Shown piece after piece: positions 45,218 through 52,196 of a stretch of DNA of 64,000 nucleotides. Each line of letters begins with the position of its first letter. The first letter of the stretch is position 1. This DNA comes from an uncultured Ectothiorhodospiraceae bacterium (lineage in GTDB: Bacteria; Pseudomonadota; Gammaproteobacteria; UBA9214), in NCBI GenBank assembly GCA_947258515.1, contig CAMYIO010000012.1, positions 2,020-66,019 on the forward strand, written 5' to 3'. The notes below the pieces were generated by a model. The model searched no databases and had not been told where the DNA came from. It worked only from the letters and a program-made list of their open reading frames with translations. A program made the translations under genes and the position numbers.

Positions 45218-46254
45218 ATGCTAAAACTTGTTAATAATCAAAAAGATACAGTTGACCTCGGCGCTATCAGAAATCTGCTTGCCGAAGACATGGACGCCAT
45301 CGACGCACTCATTCAGGAGTGCCTGCACAGCGATGTCGCCCTCATCAACCAGCTGTCACACTATATTATTAACAGCGGCGGCAAGCGTTTACGCCCGATG
45401 CTGGTGCTGTTGTCCGCCAGGGCCTGTCAGTACCGGGGTAATCAGCACATCAACCTCGCCGCCGTCATCGAGTTCATTCACACCGCCACCCTGCTCCACG
45501 ATGATGTCGTCGATGCCTCCCAGTTACGACGCGGCAACATGACTGCCAATGCCGTGTGGGGCAATGAGGCGAGCGTACTGGTCGGTGATTTCCTCTACTC
45601 ACGCGCCTTTGAAATGATGGTCAACGCCAACAACATGCGCATTATGGAGATCATGTCGCATACCACCAACACCATCGCCGAGGGCGAAGTACTGCAATTG
45701 CTGAACTGTCACGATGCCGAGACCACGGAAATTCGCTACATGGACGTGGTCAGCCGCAAGACCGCCCGGCTGTTTGAAGCGGCCGCCCAGATAGGCGCCT
45801 TGCTGGCCCAGCAGCCCGAGCACATCGAAACCGCACTGGCCAACTACGGCCTGCATCTTGGCATTGCCTTCCAGTTGATTGACGATGTGCTCGATTACAG
45901 TGCCTCTCCGCAAGATACCGGCAAGAATGTCGGAGATGATCTGGCCTAAGGGAAACCCACCCTGCCCCTGATACATGCCATCCACAAAGGCACGCCGAAC
46001 CAGGCCCGACTGCCATCCACAAAGGCACGCCGAACCAGGCCCGACTCATTCGCAAGGCGATAGAGAATGGCGGCCATGACAACATGCAGGACGTGTGCGC
46101 CATTATTGAATCGACCGGGGCCATCCCGTACACTGCGCAGGCCGCGCAACGGCAAGCTGATCTGGCCATAGAGGCGCTGAATCCGCTACCGGATTCCGCC
46201 AGCAAGGAAGCGCTGTACGGCCTCGCAGAATTTTCTGTCAGCCGTAGTTACTAA
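45218..46254 (+). pseudogene. ispB: Octaprenyl diphosphate synthase, interrupted by a premature TAA and a 35-bp tandem duplication
   Basis: GGKRLRP, LLHDDVVD, FQLIDD; DDLA*GKPTLPLIH with TAA at 45947; 45976-46010 repeated at 46011-46045; removing one copy restores the C-terminus to the TAA ending at 46254. Confidence 0.9.
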
Positions 46255-46255
46255 A

Positions 46256-46332
<77 letters not shown>

Positions 46333-46441: not shown

Positions 46442-48211
46442 ATGGCTAATCTTCCTCCAGGTGGTGATCGCAGGAGCCCGCAGGTTTTTGATCGCCGCCG
46501 CACCACCATGGTGTCCGGGCACCTCGAATTACTCTCCAAAATGAGCGGCCACCTGGCCGTCACGCTTAATCTCGATGAAACCATCCAGAAGGCGCTCGAC
46601 CTGATCGTCAAGTTCGTCCAGGCCGAGGGTGGCGCCCTGTTCCTGCTCGAGGAGAAATACGGCACCCTGCTCTGCAAGGCGAGTGCCGGCCCGGTAGATA
46701 TACGCGGCATCCGGGTAAAAATCGGCGAGGGCATCGTCGGCCATTGTGTCACGGAAAATACCAGCCGCATCGTCAGGGATGTACAGCAGGACGCCGACTT
46801 CGATCACACCATTGATGAATCCACCGGTTTTCAGACACGTTCGATAGTGTGCACCCCGATGATCGTCAACGGGCAGAAAATCGGTGCCATTGAACTGGTC
46901 AACAAGCACACGGACGACGGGCTGTTTTCCGATACCGACCTGTTAATGCTGCAGACACTGGCCTCTGCCGCCGCACTGGCAATTAACAACGCCCACATGG
47001 CGGAAGAACTGGTCGAACAGGAGCGCGTCAGCCGCGAGCTGGAACTTGCCACGGAAATGCAGCGCAGCCTGTTGCCGGTCACACCGACGGACAGGTTTCC
47101 CGTCGCGGGGATCAACCTGCCTGCCAACGAGATGTCGGGTGACTTTTACGATTTTTTTGTACTTGAAGACGGCCGCATATACTTCAGCCTGGGCGACGTC
47201 TCCGGGAAGGGTATGGATGCCGCCCTGCTGATGTCAAAAACCGCCAGCCTGTTTCGCTGCCTCGGCAAGACCATACTCGAACCGAATGTGCTGCTGGCCA
47301 CCATCAACAGGGAACTCTGCGAGACGGCCATTCATGGTATGTTCGTCACCATGGCCTGTGGTCTGCTGGATCCGAAAACAGGCATTGTGGAGCTGGCGAA
47401 TGCCGGCCATGAACCGCCCCTGATACATGCCCGGGACGGCACGTTTACAGCGCTGCCAGCAAGCGCACCACCACTCGGCATCATGTCACTGCAGGCCGGA
47501 GACAACGGCATCAGGGAGGAGACATTCAATCTGGATGGCGGCACGCTGTACATTTTTACTGACGGCGTCACCGAGGGCTGCCTCGAGGATGGCAGCCGTC
47601 TGGAACAGACGGGCTTCCAGGATATCATGCGGGAACGCTGTGACCTGCCGATAGCGGCACGCATCAAGGCAGTGGTGTCGATTCTCAGCGACACCGGACG
47701 CAAGCGTCATGATGACATTACCTTGCTGGCGATTGAAGACACCCGGCCTGAACTGCGTCACCATGCCTCCGGGGATTGGCCGCGAATGGTTGCCCGCTTC
47801 ACTTTCCCTGCCCGTGCGGATGCACTGCAGTCGGTTCGCGAGGTTGTCAATGATGCCTGCGAGACCTGCGGCTGTGTCACGGAGGATGCCACGGATATAA
47901 TTATCGCCGTCGGGGAAGCCTGCCAGAACATCGTCAGACATGCCTACAAGGGACTCGATGAAGGCGATGCCACATTGGAAATCTACTGCGAAGACGGCAT
48001 ACTTGAGTTTCGCCTGCAGGATTCAGCTCGCCCGATAGACCGGGAGAAAATGCAACCAAAGTGGCCGAAAGAACTGGGGCCCGGCGGTCTCGGTATATGC
48101 CTTATCCATGACATAATGGACAAAGTGGAATACCTGCCGCCCCCCGAAGGCCAGGGGAACCTGTTACGCATGGTAAAATTCATCAAGAGAAAAAACAGCA
48201 ATGAAACATGA
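46442..48211 (+). CDS. GAF - SpoIIE/PP2C phosphatase - RsbW-type HATPase kinase fusion
   Basis: GAF (GEGIVG, TGFQTRSI, IELVNK); PP2C (SGDFYD, GDVSGKG, NAGH, TDGVTE, DDITL); kinase (EACQNIVRHAY, GGLGICLI). Confidence 0.9.
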   Translation: MANLPPGGDRRSPQVFDRRRTTMVSGHLELLSKMSGHLAVTLNLDETIQKALDLIVKFVQAEGGALFLLEEKYGTLLCKASAGPVDIRGIRVKIGEGIVGHCVTENTSRIVRDVQQDADFDHTIDESTGFQTRSIVCTPMIVNGQKIGAIELVNKHTDDGLFSDTDLLMLQTLASAAALAINNAHMAEELVEQERVSRELELATEMQRSLLPVTPTDRFPVAGINLPANEMSGDFYDFFVLEDGRIYFSLGDVSGKGMDAALLMSKTASLFRCLGKTILEPNVLLATINRELCETAIHGMFVTMACGLLDPKTGIVELANAGHEPPLIHARDGTFTALPASAPPLGIMSLQAGDNGIREETFNLDGGTLYIFTDGVTEGCLEDGSRLEQTGFQDIMRERCDLPIAARIKAVVSILSDTGRKRHDDITLLAIEDTRPELRHHASGDWPRMVARFTFPARADALQSVREVVNDACETCGCVTEDATDIIIAVGEACQNIVRHAYKGLDEGDATLEIYCEDGILEFRLQDSARPIDREKMQPKWPKELGPGGLGICLIHDIMDKVEYLPPPEGQGNLLRMVKFIKRKNSNET

Positions 48212-48533
48212 AATCGTGGAAAAACAGGGCGCATCCATCGTGGTTTTCAAAGGCGAGATTGACCTCGACAGTTCACCGGCGGCAAGAAAAACCCTGCTTA
48301 GATGTTCCGATAATACCGGTAACGTGATTGTCGACCTGTCGGGCGTAACCTATATCGACAGTTCCGGCGTTGCTTCACTGGTGGAAGCATTGCAGGCAGC
48401 AAAGAAAAACGGCAGCCTGCTCTCGCTGGCCGCGGTCAGCGAACCCACACGCCGCGTACTTGAACTGGCACGTCTCGACAAGGTATTTACGATATACGGC
48501 AGCGTCGATGAGGCGCTGGCAGGCAAGGGCTAG
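48201..48533 (+). CDS. STAS-domain anti-anti-sigma-type protein (RsbV/SpoIIAA-like)
   Basis: GEIDL, DLSGVTYIDSSGVASL with the conserved phosphoacceptor Ser; overlaps the upstream gene. Confidence 0.92.
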   Translation: MKHEIVEKQGASIVVFKGEIDLDSSPAARKTLLRCSDNTGNVIVDLSGVTYIDSSGVASLVEALQAAKKNGSLLSLAAVSEPTRRVLELARLDKVFTIYGSVDEALAGKG

Positions 48534-48579
48534 ACACCCGGACTCCGCAAACGGCACGAATAACGGATACCACTGGAAT

Positions 48580-49371
48580 ATGCTGAAGCTGGTTGAAAAG
48601 CTCGGGAGCAATTTTCTGTACCTGCTGGAAACAGTCGGCAGGATGGGCATGTTCTTCGGATCAGCCACCGCCAACATCTTCAAACCGCCCTTCTCTCTTT
48701 ATGCCATTGTTCGACAGATCTACTTCTTCGGGGCACGCTCCGTCATCGTTATATTAATTGTCGGCCTGTTCACGGGCATGGTTCTGGGCCTGCAGGGCTA
48801 CCATAACCTGAAGCAATTCGGATCCGAGGAATTGCTCGGTTCCGCCGTTGCCCTCAGCCTGATACAGGAACTGGGTCCGGTACTGACCGCGCTGATGGTC
48901 ATCGGCCGGGCCGGTTCGGCGATCTGTGCCGAAATCGGCATCATGCGCAATTCTGAACAGATTGATGCCCTTGAATGCATGGCCATCAACCCGGTCAAGT
49001 TTCTTGTTGCCCCCAAGTTTGTTGCCGCGCTCATCTCCATGCCGGTGCTGACATTCATCTTTAATATCGTCGGTATATTCGGTGGCTACCTGGCCGGCGT
49101 TGTGTTACTCGATGTTGCCGAAGGCGCGTACTTCCAGGGCATGTATAACAGCGTTGAATGGGTCGATATCCGCCTGTGTCTTATCAAGTCGATGATCTTT
49201 GGCCTGCTGGTCGTGTGGATCACCACCTTCAAGGGGTATTTCCTGCACCTCAATCGAGACGGGGTGTTCGGCGCAGAGGGTGTCAGCCGTATCACCACGG
49301 ATGCCGTGGTCCTGGCCTCGGTTTCGATTCTGGTCTGGGACTACCTGATCGGCTCAATCATACTTTCATAA
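48580..49371 (+). CDS. mlaE: MlaE-family ABC permease
   Basis: GLFTGMVLGLQ, ELGPVLTAL..GRAGSAI.AEIG.M, EQIDAL, GAEGV..TT.AVV. Confidence 0.93.
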   Translation: MLKLVEKLGSNFLYLLETVGRMGMFFGSATANIFKPPFSLYAIVRQIYFFGARSVIVILIVGLFTGMVLGLQGYHNLKQFGSEELLGSAVALSLIQELGPVLTALMVIGRAGSAICAEIGIMRNSEQIDALECMAINPVKFLVAPKFVAALISMPVLTFIFNIVGIFGGYLAGVVLLDVAEGAYFQGMYNSVEWVDIRLCLIKSMIFGLLVVWITTFKGYFLHLNRDGVFGAEGVSRITTDAVVLASVSILVWDYLIGSIILS

Positions 49372-49413
49372 CATGCACAGGACGTACATTGACTGGCACA
49401 ACCGGGGTTAGTA

Positions 49414-49860
49414 ATGAAGAAAATAAATCTTGAAATCATCGTGGGCTCCTTTTTGCTGGCAGGGTTCATCAGCTTTTCCTGGCTGGCCGTGAAAATGGGC
49501 GATATCAATCTGTTCCAGCCTGAAACCTACCCGGTAACGGCGCGCTTTACGTCAATCAGTGGCCTCAAGGAGGGCTCGACCATCGAGCTCGCCGGGGTCG
49601 TTGTCGGCAAGGTCAGCCGCATTGAACTGGATACCGGCGATTATGAAGCGGTTGTGCACATGAATATCAACAAACAGGTCGAGTTGCAGGATGACACCAT
49701 TGCATCCATTCGCACCTCAGGCATAATCGGCGACAAATACATCAAGCTGTCACCCGGAGGGTCGGAGATCATCCTCGCGGCTGGTGATGTCATTGAGGAA
49801 ACCGAACCATCCATCAGCCTTGAAGAGCTGGTCAGCAAATACATTTTTGATAGTGAATAG
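49414..49860 (+). CDS. mlaD: MlaD single-MCE-domain protein
   Basis: N-terminal TM helix, A.F.SISGLK.G, GV.VGKV, IRTSGIIGDKYI.L.PGG. Confidence 0.93.
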   Translation: MKKINLEIIVGSFLLAGFISFSWLAVKMGDINLFQPETYPVTARFTSISGLKEGSTIELAGVVVGKVSRIELDTGDYEAVVHMNINKQVELQDDTIASIRTSGIIGDKYIKLSPGGSEIILAAGDVIEETEPSISLEELVSKYIFDSE

Positions 49861-49878
49861 CCACCGGAAGCGCCAGTC

Positions 49879-50712
49879 ATGATGGAAAAACTCCTGCTCG
49901 CGTTGCTGATCTTTATCTTGCCACTGACGGCACTGGGCGTTGAATCACGCAGGGGCTTTATAGAAACTCATGAGGCACAACCTGAATCCGCTGAAGCGGT
50001 CACGCCGCCGATTCTGGAAGAGATGGAGTCTGACGGTACGGACGACGAAAGCGCGCCGTTCATGGACGATGATGACCTGTCATTCCTCGATGAAGATGAT
50101 GAGTTCATTGAAGTCTATGACCCTTTTGAAACATTCAACCGTGGCGTGTTCTGGTTTAATGACAAGGCCTATATTTATGTAATGAAGCCTGTCGCAAAGG
50201 GCTGGCGCTGGCTTGCCCCGGAACCATTGCGACTCGGCATCAGGAACTTTTTCTCAAACCTGCGGGCACCGATACGCTTCGTCAATGCCGCCTTGCAAGG
50301 CAAGTTTCATGATGCCGGCAATGAACTGACACGCTTTGGCGTCAATTCAACACTGGGTATCGGTGGCCTGTTCGACACAGCGAAAGGGAATTTCGGGATT
50401 GAGAGAAAGACAGAAGATACCGGACAGACCATGGCCCACTACGGTATTGGCCCCGGCCCCTACCTGGTGTTGCCGTTCCTGGGACCCTCAAATGTCAGGG
50501 ACGGTATTGGCCTGCTGGGCGACATTTACTTCAGTCTGGTGCCCGTGCTGTTTGAAAACCGTTACTACTGGATGGCCGTGTCCGGTGATATTATCAACTT
50601 CCTGTCGATCGACAAGGATACCTATGAAGGTATCGTGAAAGATTCACTCGATCCTTACCTGTTCCTGCGAAATGCCTATGGCCAGTATCGCAGAAATCTG
50701 ATACTTCACTAG
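49879..50712 (+). CDS. mlaA: MlaA/VacJ-family protein with acidic N-terminal linker and no lipobox Cys
   Basis: DPFETFNR, NFFSNL, RF.VNSTLGIGGLFD, ED.GQT, YLVLPFLGPS.VRD, DPY. Confidence 0.9.
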   Translation: MMEKLLLALLIFILPLTALGVESRRGFIETHEAQPESAEAVTPPILEEMESDGTDDESAPFMDDDDLSFLDEDDEFIEVYDPFETFNRGVFWFNDKAYIYVMKPVAKGWRWLAPEPLRLGIRNFFSNLRAPIRFVNAALQGKFHDAGNELTRFGVNSTLGIGGLFDTAKGNFGIERKTEDTGQTMAHYGIGPGPYLVLPFLGPSNVRDGIGLLGDIYFSLVPVLFENRYYWMAVSGDIINFLSIDKDTYEGIVKDSLDPYLFLRNAYGQYRRNLILH

Positions 50713-50748
50713 TCACACAAGTACACTTTGATTCAAGAGGTAGCTGCA

Positions 50749-51348
50749 ATGCTAAAAAAAATCTTTCTGACACTCATAACCGGATTTACACTGGCATTTA
50801 CCGCGATGTCACTTGCGGCTAGTTCGCCGACCGATGAGGTACGCATCTCTGTGGATGCTGTTCTTGCCATACTGGACAACGAGCAACTGAATTACGAAGA
50901 CAAGCGCACACAAATAAGCGTCATAGTCCAGGAACGCTTTGATTTTCGGGCCATGTCACAGCGCACGCTTGCCACCAACTGGAGTAAAACCACTGACGAG
51001 GAGAAAGAAAAGTTTGTCGGGCTGTTCTCGCAACTGATCGAAAACAGCTATGTGAGTAAGATCGAGTCGTACACCAACGAGAGAGTGGATTATCCCGGCG
51101 AGAAGGTCAGTGGCAGGAAGGCCGTCGTGGAAACCCTCATCATCACTTCCAGCGCCGACATACCTGTCGACTACAGGCTCTACCAGAAAGGTGACCAGTG
51201 GCTGGTATATGATGTCATCATCGAAGGTGTCAGCCTGATCAGCAACTACCGCAGCTCCTATCAGGAGATAATGAAAAAAGAAGGTTTTGATGGTCTGCTG
51301 GCAAAGATGCGGGCAAAGATCGACGAACTTGCGATTACACCATCATAA
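50749..51348 (+). CDS. mlaC: MlaC/Ttg2D periplasmic lipid-binding protein
   Basis: Signal peptide, FDF..MS, VDYRL, W.VYDV.IEGVSL..NYR. Confidence 0.93.
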   Translation: MLKKIFLTLITGFTLAFTAMSLAASSPTDEVRISVDAVLAILDNEQLNYEDKRTQISVIVQERFDFRAMSQRTLATNWSKTTDEEKEKFVGLFSQLIENSYVSKIESYTNERVDYPGEKVSGRKAVVETLIITSSADIPVDYRLYQKGDQWLVYDVIIEGVSLISNYRSSYQEIMKKEGFDGLLAKMRAKIDELAITPS

Positions 51349-51377
51349 GCTGCCGGCAGCATGGGTGAGCACCTTCA

Positions 51378-52196
51378 CTAGATCCGTTGCTGGCTCCGGT
51401 CAGCCGTCAGGCGCGCGAGGTATTCATCTGCATTGATGGCCTCATCCCTGGGACGGCGGTTGATCATGTCCTGTATTGCCTCGATACCACTGTGCTGGAC
51501 CTCGTCAACAGTGCCGGTCATCAACAAATGCCCGTGTCCGAGTACGGTAATACGGTCGGCGATCTTGAAGGCACTTTCCAGCTCGTGTGTAACCACAATA
51601 ATGGTTACCTTCATCGCCTGCTTGAGACGCAGGATCAACTCGTCGAGTTCGGCAGACACGACCGGATCAAGTCCGGCGGACGGTTCGTCAAAGAATAACA
51701 GGCTCGGATCCATGATAATGGCGCGCGCCAGGGCCGCCCGTTTTAACATGCCGCCCGAGAGTTCCGACGGCATCAGGTTTTCAAAACCCGCCAGGTTAAC
51801 CACCTCGAGTTTCATGCGAGACATGATACGCATGGTGTTTTCATCCAGCTTGGTGTGATGTCTGAGCGGCAATTCTATATTCGCCGCGACAGACATCGAG
51901 CCGAGCAGGGCACCCCCCTGAAAGGCAACGCCTATCTTGCGCCGGATAGCGTACAGCTCGCGACTGCTAATCCTGGTGATATCCTTGCCGAAAATGCAAA
52001 TACTGCCGGAGGTGGGCTTGATCAGACCCAGCAAGTTGCGCATCAGCGTGGTTTTACCGGAACCGCTGCCGCCCATGATCACCATGATCTCCCCTGCACG
52101 GATATCCAGATTGATGCCGCTGAGAACAGCGCGATCACCATAGTGCATGAACAGGTCTCTGACCTCGATCACATTCTCGGGAGTTTTGTCATTCAT
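51378..52196 (-). CDS. mlaF: MlaF/Mkl-type ABC ATPase
   Basis: GGSGSGKT, FQ.GAL, PSELSGGM.KR..LARA, DEP.AGLDP, VTH. Confidence 0.88.
   Translation of the reverse strand: MNDKTPENVIEVRDLFMHYGDRAVLSGINLDIRAGEIMVIMGGSGSGKTTLMRNLLGLIKPTSGSICIFGKDITRISSRELYAIRRKIGVAFQGGALLGSMSVAANIELPLRHHTKLDENTMRIMSRMKLEVVNLAGFENLMPSELSGGMLKRAALARAIIMDPSLLFFDEPSAGLDPVVSAELDELILRLKQAMKVTIIVVTHELESAFKIADRITVLGHGHLLMTGTVDEVQHSGIEAIQDMINRRPRDEAINADEYLARLTADRSQQRI

Follow-up and report, generated by a model that had tools for sequence, protein, structure and literature searches.

The window analysed here, a stretch of 64,000 nucleotides (nt) from an uncultured Ectothiorhodospiraceae bacterium (assembly GCA_947258515.1, contig CAMYIO010000012.1, positions 2,020 to 66,019 of the forward strand), carries between positions 46442 and 52196 a gene for a GAF-PP2C-kinase fusion and a gene for a STAS protein, followed by mlaE, mlaD, mlaA, mlaC and a convergent mlaF, i.e., the genes of an Mla/MCE-type lipid transporter. 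On computational evidence throughout, this locus is probably a partner-switching module whose output is the ATPase of a lipid transporter instead of a sigma factor, with STAS and MlaF forming a phosphorylation-dependent switch. In the wider sense that the module exerts some post-translational control over the transporter, be it through STAS or through the kinase domain as the effector, we make the proposal with considerable confidence.

All three parts of a partner-switching system, a PP2C phosphatase, a HATPase_c_2 kinase and a STAS protein, are present with their catalytic motifs. The translation of the fusion contains GDVSGKG, TDG, DD, EACQN and GGLG, and DSSG is found in the STAS protein, the gene of which overlaps the fusion gene by 11 nt. 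Likewise, the Mla pathway set comprising MlaE, MlaD, MlaC, MlaA and MlaF is complete, with MlaA and MlaC scoring above the Pfam cut-offs. The gaps within mlaE-mlaD-mlaA-mlaC measure 42, 18 and 15 nt, and on the minus strand the order is rsd, mazG, mlaF, with mlaF 66 nt downstream of mazG. The best NCBIfam match of MlaC is HpnM (TIGR03481), below its cut-off (110 vs. 160). The best model for the ATPase is the E. coli MlaF equivalog, yet it stays below that cut-off as well (212 vs. 441); its Walker A, Q93, LSGGM (residues 146–150), Walker B and H204 motifs are all in place. This gene content had been read from the DNA in a first-pass annotation, which described a GAF-PP2C-RsbW fusion with intact motifs, an overlapping STAS gene with DSSG, and mlaE-mlaD-mlaA-mlaC 46 nt downstream with mlaF convergent; Pfam, NCBIfam and the translations bear out each of these genes.

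In the mechanism that we propose, the MlaF-type ATPase would power MlaE-MlaD, with MlaC and MlaA providing the rest of the path to the outer membrane. The RsbW-type kinase domain of the fusion would phosphorylate Ser54 in the DSSG motif of STAS, and because this residue is located in the middle of the predicted docking surface, a phosphate there should disrupt the contact between STAS and MlaF. The PP2C domain, governed by the GAF sensor, would take the phosphate off again, such that a cytoplasmic signal could turn lipid transport on or off within seconds and without new transcription. We infer that STAS binds MlaF in the cell and that it is phosphorylated, presumably at Ser54. By analogy to E. 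coli, where MlaB is needed for MlaF association and activity (PMC7367683), the unphosphorylated STAS would correspond to the active transporter.

Evidence for this reading comes from the distribution of the module. The STAS protein was searched against 400 scored genomes of the class, 80 of which gave a match at E ≤1e-8. A tight ortholog set was found in 75 of the 400 genomes (best E ≤3e-16; 37–79% identity, the match of the window itself aside; mostly single copy), and the next match follows at 2.6e-13, so that the threshold falls into a natural gap. For the 73 class loci outside the genus, approximately 9 kb on each side were surveyed and the domains were mapped by tblastn, using proteins of the window and of two Pfam-checked loci as queries. 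In 67 of these 73 loci, the next gene after STAS, on its strand and at a distance of −20 to 168 nt, is mlaE or mlaF, and one of the six exceptions lies on a contig that ends 600 nt after STAS. The linkage of STAS to Mla genes is thus kept in other genomes, as it is in 79 of 80 loci from other lineages. Synteny across so many families is far above chance.

Moreover, clustering of the open reading frames (ORFs) of the 73 loci, all against all, returned a small set of conserved genes: STAS in 73 loci, MlaF in 64, PP2C in 62, MlaE in 62, the kinase in 56, MCE in 51 and the lipoprotein in 49. The other clusters that occur in at least 20 loci are antisense shadows of the core genes, and among the ORF clusters no conserved sigma factor gene was found. 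The weaker STAS matches (E >1e-13, L130–L136) served as a contrast. Three of them (L130, L132, L133) combine STAS with PP2C and/or kinase without Mla genes, L131 is a lone STAS, L134 is a canonical mlaFEDC-mlaB locus, and two gave no tblastn match.

The dominant gene order is [GAF or HDOD]-PP2C, kinase, STAS, MlaE, MlaF, an MCE protein of approximately 315–350 amino acids (aa) and a PqiC-like (ABC_trans_aux) lipoprotein. A variant, STAS-MlaF-MlaE-MlaD-(MlaA)-MlaC, is found in six class loci, and the form of the window itself, with mlaE-mlaD-mlaA-mlaC and a convergent mlaF, recurs in another family (L085). In two loci (L069, L097) STAS-MlaE-MlaF-MCE-lipoprotein is followed by a second MlaE-MlaD-MlaA-MlaC set lacking a second MlaF, and each of the two genomes has a single MlaF of this subtype; one ATPase may therefore serve two permeases in these loci, and their tandem layout looks like the ancestor of the arrangement in the window. 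MlaF and STAS are the constant partners, while the permease/MCE set and the gene order vary. The permeases of the class loci are 261–284 aa long (n = 62) and hence have no fused STAS domain.

The two constant partners also occur together at the level of genomes. The MlaF subtype was called at E ≤1e-70 in the same 400 genomes, with first matches being 57–87% identical, and was found in 74 of them; for the orthologs of the MlaF of the window, identity is put at 57–74%. Both STAS and the MlaF subtype are present in 72 genomes, STAS only in 3, the MlaF subtype only in 2 and neither in 323; contig ends are met in two of the three STAS-only cases and in one of the two MlaF-only cases.

Within the genus, a fusion ortholog is encoded in 12 of the 24 other genomes (64–95% identity). 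In 10 of these genomes the block is syntenic over its full length, fusion through convergent mlaF, with ispB and mazG on either side, and the other two are cut by contig ends. Five near-complete genomes of the genus that lack the fusion (G002, G006, G007, G017, G024) lack the MlaF subtype as well, their best matches being 42–45% identical. As a side observation, in one genus genome (L051, contig C2 of G022) the fusion, mlaE, mazG and ispB are each in pieces in different frames, which reflects either indel errors of the assembly or a locus in decay.

Beyond the class, a pattern scan with the STAS alignment over 185,579 species genomes gave at least 596 confirmed stretches, and the best 80 loci were examined. 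Their submitter labels are Gammaproteobacteria, Rhodospirillales and other Alphaproteobacteria, Deltaproteobacteria, Myxococcota, Marinimicrobia, Nitrospirae and Magnetococcales. MlaE follows STAS in 79 of these 80 loci, and the remaining one ends 32 nt past STAS. PP2C and kinase are fused in 56 of the 80 loci and split in 19, three have a kinase match without a nearby PP2C and two have no kinase match; the corresponding numbers for the 73 class loci are 11, 44, 14 and 4. The fusion of phosphatase and kinase had been considered as an unusual feature in itself, a view we rejected as both forms are common.

Co-folding of MlaF and STAS was performed with an MlaF alignment of 62 rows and a STAS alignment of 58 rows. 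The three runs scored 0.78, 0.79 and 0.78 and the three controls 0.00, 0.35 and 0.00, for a mark that is reached by 58 of 80 solved complexes and by 2 of 110 mismatched pairs. The pair thus passes against its controls, with a partner pLDDT (predicted local distance difference test) of 88 and at least 98% of the contacts shared between runs. The predicted contact involves STAS residues 21–22, 25–26, 29, 53–55, 57–59, 61–62, 82, 85–86 and 88–92, and MlaF residues 114–132, 161–163 and 190–196, of which 114–132 lie between the Q-loop and the signature motif and correspond to the helical subdomain. S54 and S55 meet MlaF residues 115, 117, 121, 125, 128, 129 and 163. In the model, the two serines of DSSG thus occupy the middle of the interface with the MlaF helical subdomain, the place that Thr52 of MlaB takes in E. 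coli. In the solved E. coli complex, MlaB binds this subdomain via its helical face, with Thr52 near the centre of the interface, and the exchange T52E weakens binding (PMC7367683).

G18, D21, R29, Y51, S54, S55, G56, A58, L60, E62, L76, L89, L92 and D93 are invariant in 58 STAS orthologs, and D53 is nearly so in the same sequences. In 70 kinase sequences the N-box (E..N), D527 and PGGLG are kept at 90% or more. The MlaF family retains LSGGM, a signature typical of Mla and TGD systems (Kolich et al., PMC7367683), and has a C-terminal extension of approximately 35 residues with invariant R247, Y259 and L263. Y259 and L263 are comparable to Tyr261 and Leu265 of E. coli MlaF, which dock at the MlaF-MlaB groove (PMC7367683).

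By sequence, the STAS protein is of the RsbV/SpoIIAA type and stands outside the MlaB family. It scores 77 bits against TIGR00377 (anti-sigma-factor antagonist; cut-off 53.45) and 28.7 bits against NF033618 (MlaB; cut-off 90), the latter matching residues 36–95 alone. Among solved chains, the best match of the STAS family profile is TM1442 (E 2e-21), followed by SpoIIAA and RsbV (1e-9 to 1e-16), and the solved MlaB chains match weakly (8e-5 to 8e-4). Positions 3–104 of the profile align end to end with residues 6–109 of full-length TM1442. By this alignment the protein does not have the minimal STAS fold of MlaB, which is devoid of the fifth strand and the last helix (Kolich 2020, PMC7367683). 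A protein search with STAS gave 3472 clusters at E ≤1e-10; those that bear a name in their sources are called 'anti-sigma B factor antagonist', 'anti-sigma factor antagonist' or 'STAS domain-containing protein'. The first-pass annotation had proposed that the STAS protein acts as a phosphorylatable MlaB; the linkage and the co-folding support MlaB-like behaviour, but the protein is no member of the MlaB family, and a canonical MlaB is retained elsewhere in the genome.

The window is part of contig C12 of a 3.59-Mb assembly that is 98% complete and contains three MlaE loci. Besides the locus described here, contig C4 encodes a canonical mlaFEDCB with its own 99-aa MlaB, followed by murA, and contig C108 (3288–6766) encodes an MCE transporter of the Mpc build, comprising a 375-aa MlaE with an N-terminal extension (MlaE3), an ATPase, a 315-aa MCE protein and a PqiC-like lipoprotein. 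The STAS protein of the window is 24% identical end to end with the MlaB of the same genome. The MlaF of the window shares 40% identity with the canonical MlaF and 49% with the ATPase of C108; its MlaE is 43–47% identical to the canonical MlaE and 27% to MlaE3, and as the permease is thus nearer to the canonical MlaE than to that of C108, the locus is a mosaic. The HATPase_c_2 domain of the fusion is the sole full-length match to an RsbW-type kinase domain in the genome. The statement that neither a sigma factor nor a separate mlaB is present holds at this locus; genome-wide it does not, as nine sigma-70-family genes and the MlaB on C4 were found. Separately, a fused STAS in the N-terminal extension of MlaE3 was considered as a possibility, with Pfam STAS_2 giving E 0.082 and hhalign against the STAS family a probability of 5%; a single-sequence structure model of MlaE3 (mean pLDDT 47.8) was too poor for a structure search, and a fused STAS is claimed here for Brucella alone.

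A consensus scan of the 46-nt gap between STAS and mlaE revealed neither a promoter-like nor a terminator-like site, and hence no sign of a promoter that would part the two genes. The locus is covered by contigs from four metatranscriptome runs of three studies, and the gap is bridged by two RNA-library contigs, X11 (48141–48759) and X15 (48480–48982), from two runs of one study. These contigs are compatible with co-transcription and no more, since such libraries can hold DNA and a contig is no proof of a single transcript. At position 51377, within the 29 nt that separate the mlaC end from the mlaF end, one base is missing in contigs of three RNA-library runs.

Several observations weigh against a STAS-MlaF switch, or limit how far it can be extended. 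Most domain calls of the survey are tblastn identity thresholds, with Pfam applied to representative loci alone, and kin genomes are not independent counts; no statistics are given. Five class loci have at least 5 kb downstream of STAS without an Mla gene there, two of them with a CHASE2 cyclase or an FHA gene in that place; four of the five genomes nevertheless encode the MlaF subtype elsewhere, unlinked from STAS, which speaks for the reading, while the fifth (G108) lacks it altogether. STAS groups by sequence with the anti-sigma antagonists and not with MlaB, and the kinase domain belongs with the anti-sigma kinases of RsbW type, in a genome with nine sigma-70-family genes. As MlaF-MlaB complexes have been solved, the co-folding may mirror this likeness instead of real binding. 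In the window, mlaF is on the opposite strand behind mazG and consequently outside the STAS transcript. Finally, one genome (G302, 97% complete) encodes MlaE, an MlaF 57% identical to that of the window, MCE and the lipoprotein without STAS, kinase or PP2C. The regulatory genes appear to have been lost cleanly there. STAS is hence not obligatory for the transporter, and a transporter without STAS speaks for caution about the sign of the effect.

The sequence affinities of STAS and kinase are what one would expect from a conventional partner switch that acts on a sigma factor encoded elsewhere, the mla genes merely sharing its operon or regulon. Both proteins score best against the anti-sigma antagonist and RsbW models, the public annotation of STAS is 'anti-sigma B factor antagonist', and there are nine sigma-70-family candidates in the genome; the RsbW-type domain of Shewanella CrsR is reported to control RpoS. 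We nevertheless consider this explanation unlikely, because no sigma gene is conserved near the 73 class loci, STAS occurs nearly one-to-one with a single MlaF subtype (72 genomes with both, 5 with one only), the module keeps its position immediately ahead of mlaE or mlaF across changes in gene order and permease type, and the genus loses the fusion and the MlaF subtype together. At a similarly low level of probability, the kinase domain could itself be the effector, i.e., MlaF or MlaE would be held inactive by the bound RsbW-like domain, much as a sigma factor is by its anti-sigma factor, until unphosphorylated STAS pulls that domain off, and the output would still be the lipid transporter. 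Such a scheme follows the textbook logic of RsbW/RsbV; a kinase match is found upstream in 69 of the 73 class loci, as tightly linked as STAS, the kinase motifs are conserved, and the co-occurrence data fit equally well. However, STAS and MlaF pass the co-folding on their own, one genome (G389, 97% complete) keeps STAS-MlaE-MlaF-MCE-lipoprotein although no kinase was found with the kinase domain of the window as query, and it is STAS and not a kinase that is fused to permeases of the Mpc type (PMC12436622).

Very improbable, in our estimate, is a purely structural role, with STAS being a constitutive subunit like MlaB and the kinase and phosphatase acting on another substrate or being vestigial. 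It could account for the 14 of 73 loci that have only a kinase and no PP2C close by, for the lack of a detected kinase in G389, and for E. coli MlaB, for which no evidence of phosphorylation exists according to PMC7367683. It leaves unexplained why Ser54, Ser55 and Gly56 are invariant in 58 orthologs, why the ATP-binding motifs are kept in 70 kinase sequences, and why PP2C and kinase are present upstream in most loci, as a fusion or as neighbours (55 of the 73 in the class, 75 of the 80 from other lineages). Moreover, the fusion contains the only RsbW-type kinase domain of the genome, and the STAS protein encoded by the overlapping gene is the obvious substrate. We favour the STAS-MlaF phospho-switch. 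Whether it can be generalised, such that reversible serine phosphorylation of a stand-alone STAS, swapping between kinase and ATPase, is a widespread dedicated switch for MCE-family lipid transporters, and in some lineages signalling may begin with a membrane CHASE2 cyclase that makes the cyclic nucleotide sensed by the phosphatase through its GAF domain, is in our judgement an even bet.

The cyclase enters this scheme through its distribution. A CHASE2 adenylate/guanylate cyclase gene is found near 12 of 29 GAF-type class loci as compared with 0 of 28 HDOD-type loci, and it may provide the cyclic-nucleotide signal for the GAF-PP2C protein; the pattern may also be due to shared ancestry alone. 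In total, 13 of the 73 class loci have such a gene, 12 with a GAF sensor, none with HDOD and one without a detected sensor. It is located just past the transporter (L052, 12834–15086; L084, 3597–5834) or directly past STAS in L061 (5705–7939).

Neighbours outside the core are less frequent. FHA, eukaryote-type PP2C, Hanks-type kinase, the CHASE2 cyclase, nth, an Rnf subunit and DUF1841 each occur in at most 19 class loci. Genes for FHA, for a PP2C of eukaryote type and for a Hanks-type Ser/Thr kinase, the last with a CHASE2 piece, recur downstream on the opposite strand in 11–19 of the 73 loci (L081, 15016–15765; L112, 4154–4981; L080, 82–1749) and constitute a second signalling cluster near the module. 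DUF1841 is located upstream of the module in 10 loci and, in the STAS-less genome G302, directly before MlaE-MlaF-MCE-lipoprotein (L217, 5377–9073). In the window, ispB (region 45940–46050) differs from its counterparts in two genus relatives by a stop near 45947 (GAA in the relatives, TAA here) and by a 35-bp tandem duplication at approximately 45976–46010, and contigs of two RNA-library runs skip the 35 bp. The gene is otherwise essential, and both lesions are probably artefacts of the assembly or of the strain. The features of the locus are compiled in the table.

Table. Features of the partner-switching and lipid-transport locus in window coordinates.
Feature	Position	Strand	Support or remark
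GAF-PP2C-kinase fusion, 589 aa	46442–48211	+	Pfam, translation
GAF sensor domain of the fusion	46565–46984 (residues 42–181)	+	Pfam E 2e-18
SpoIIE/PP2C phosphatase domain of the fusion	47168–47737 (residues 243–432)	+	Pfam E 5e-38
HATPase_c_2 RsbW-type serine kinase domain of the fusion	47804–48178 (residues 455–579)	+	Pfam E 2e-25
STAS protein, 110 aa	48201–48533	+	Pfam STAS E 5e-22
D53-S54-S55-G56 (DSSG) of STAS	48357–48368		S54 (48360–48362), putative phospho-acceptor
STAS-mlaE gap, 46 nt	48534–48579	+	
MlaE permease, 263 aa, without N-terminal STAS extension	48580–49371	+	Pfam MlaE E 2e-74; TIGR00056 233 bits (cut-off 212)
MlaD, 148 aa, single MCE domain	49414–49860	+	TIGR04430 161 bits (cut-off 135)
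MlaA-family outer-membrane lipoprotein, 277 aa	49879–50712	+	Pfam MlaA E 1e-67
MlaC-family periplasmic lipid carrier, 206 aa	50728–51348	+	Pfam MlaC E 1.5e-47
MlaF-type ABC ATPase, 272 aa	51378–52196	−	Convergent with mlaC; proposed target of STAS
tRNA-Pro	46256–46332		Upstream of the fusion, as is ispB

Post-translational regulation of inter-membrane lipid traffic in bacteria is largely unknown. The operon described here brings a dedicated kinase and a dedicated phosphatase beside STAS and the transporter, which the idea of MlaB phosphorylation has lacked so far, and the arrangement is present in about a fifth of the sampled class genomes (75 of 400) and in several other lineages. Because the operon supplies kinase and phosphatase, phospho-regulation of STAS is directly testable with four purified proteins. 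If our reading is true, it would represent the first natural case of the phospho-regulation hypothesised for MlaB, an ABC transporter would join the short list of non-sigma outputs of partner switching, and the widespread annotation of such STAS proteins as 'anti-sigma B factor antagonist' would be corrected.

Among known systems, the closest parallel is MlaFEDB of E. coli (PMC7367683), where a small STAS protein is likewise encoded with an MlaE/MlaF/MCE transporter. The likeness extends to the predicted contact with the MlaF helical subdomain via a helical face that carries a Ser/Thr site, and to the LSGGM motif and the C-terminal extension with conserved Tyr and Leu in MlaF. In contrast to MlaB, the STAS protein of the window is full length, RsbV/SpoIIAA-like and accompanied by a dedicated kinase and phosphatase. 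In the E. coli study, the regulation of MlaB is called an open question, and phosphorylation of the STAS subunit is named as an intriguing but untested possibility (PMC7367683).

The Mpc system of Brucella abortus (mpcEFDA; PMC12436622) resembles most of the related loci in its MlaE-like permease, MlaF-like ATPase, long MCE protein of approximately 315–350 aa and PqiC-like lipoprotein. MpcE contains an N-terminal STAS domain homologous to MlaB (PMC12436622). In Mpc, STAS is thus part of the permease, and neither a kinase nor a phosphatase is described, whereas here a separate STAS gene precedes a short permease, with kinase and PP2C before it. The window itself departs from the Mpc build, with a short MlaE, MlaD, MlaA and MlaC in place of the pair of MCE protein and lipoprotein. 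A separate STAS gene before a short permease would be expected if STAS fills the role of the fused STAS domain of MpcE.

RsbU/RsbV/RsbW and SpoIIE/SpoIIAA/SpoIIAB of Bacillus are partner-switching systems. They are built from the same PP2C, HATPase_c_2 kinase and STAS families, with a conserved serine in DSxG; unlike in Bacillus, no sigma gene is linked in the 73 clustered loci, and the conserved partner is an ABC ATPase. Modules akin to partner switching but with non-sigma outputs are reported from Vibrio fischeri (SypE/SypA) and Anabaena (HenR with a STAS-glycosyltransferase), and reportedly also from Pseudomonas (HsbR/HsbA) and Shewanella (CrsR/CrsA), the latter two with a PP2C-kinase fusion. 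In such modules a phosphorylatable STAS protein has a target that is not an anti-sigma factor. These non-sigma modules differ from the present one in that the proposed target is a membrane lipid transporter and the sensor is GAF or HDOD and not a receiver domain. A search of a full-text collection, main texts only, returned no account of partner switching coupled to a transporter of the Mla, MCE or Mpc kind, and the words 'kinase' and 'phosphatase' do not occur in the text of a phylogenomic Mla survey (PMC10665443). The parts all belong to known families, and it is their proposed coupling to a lipid transporter that would be new.

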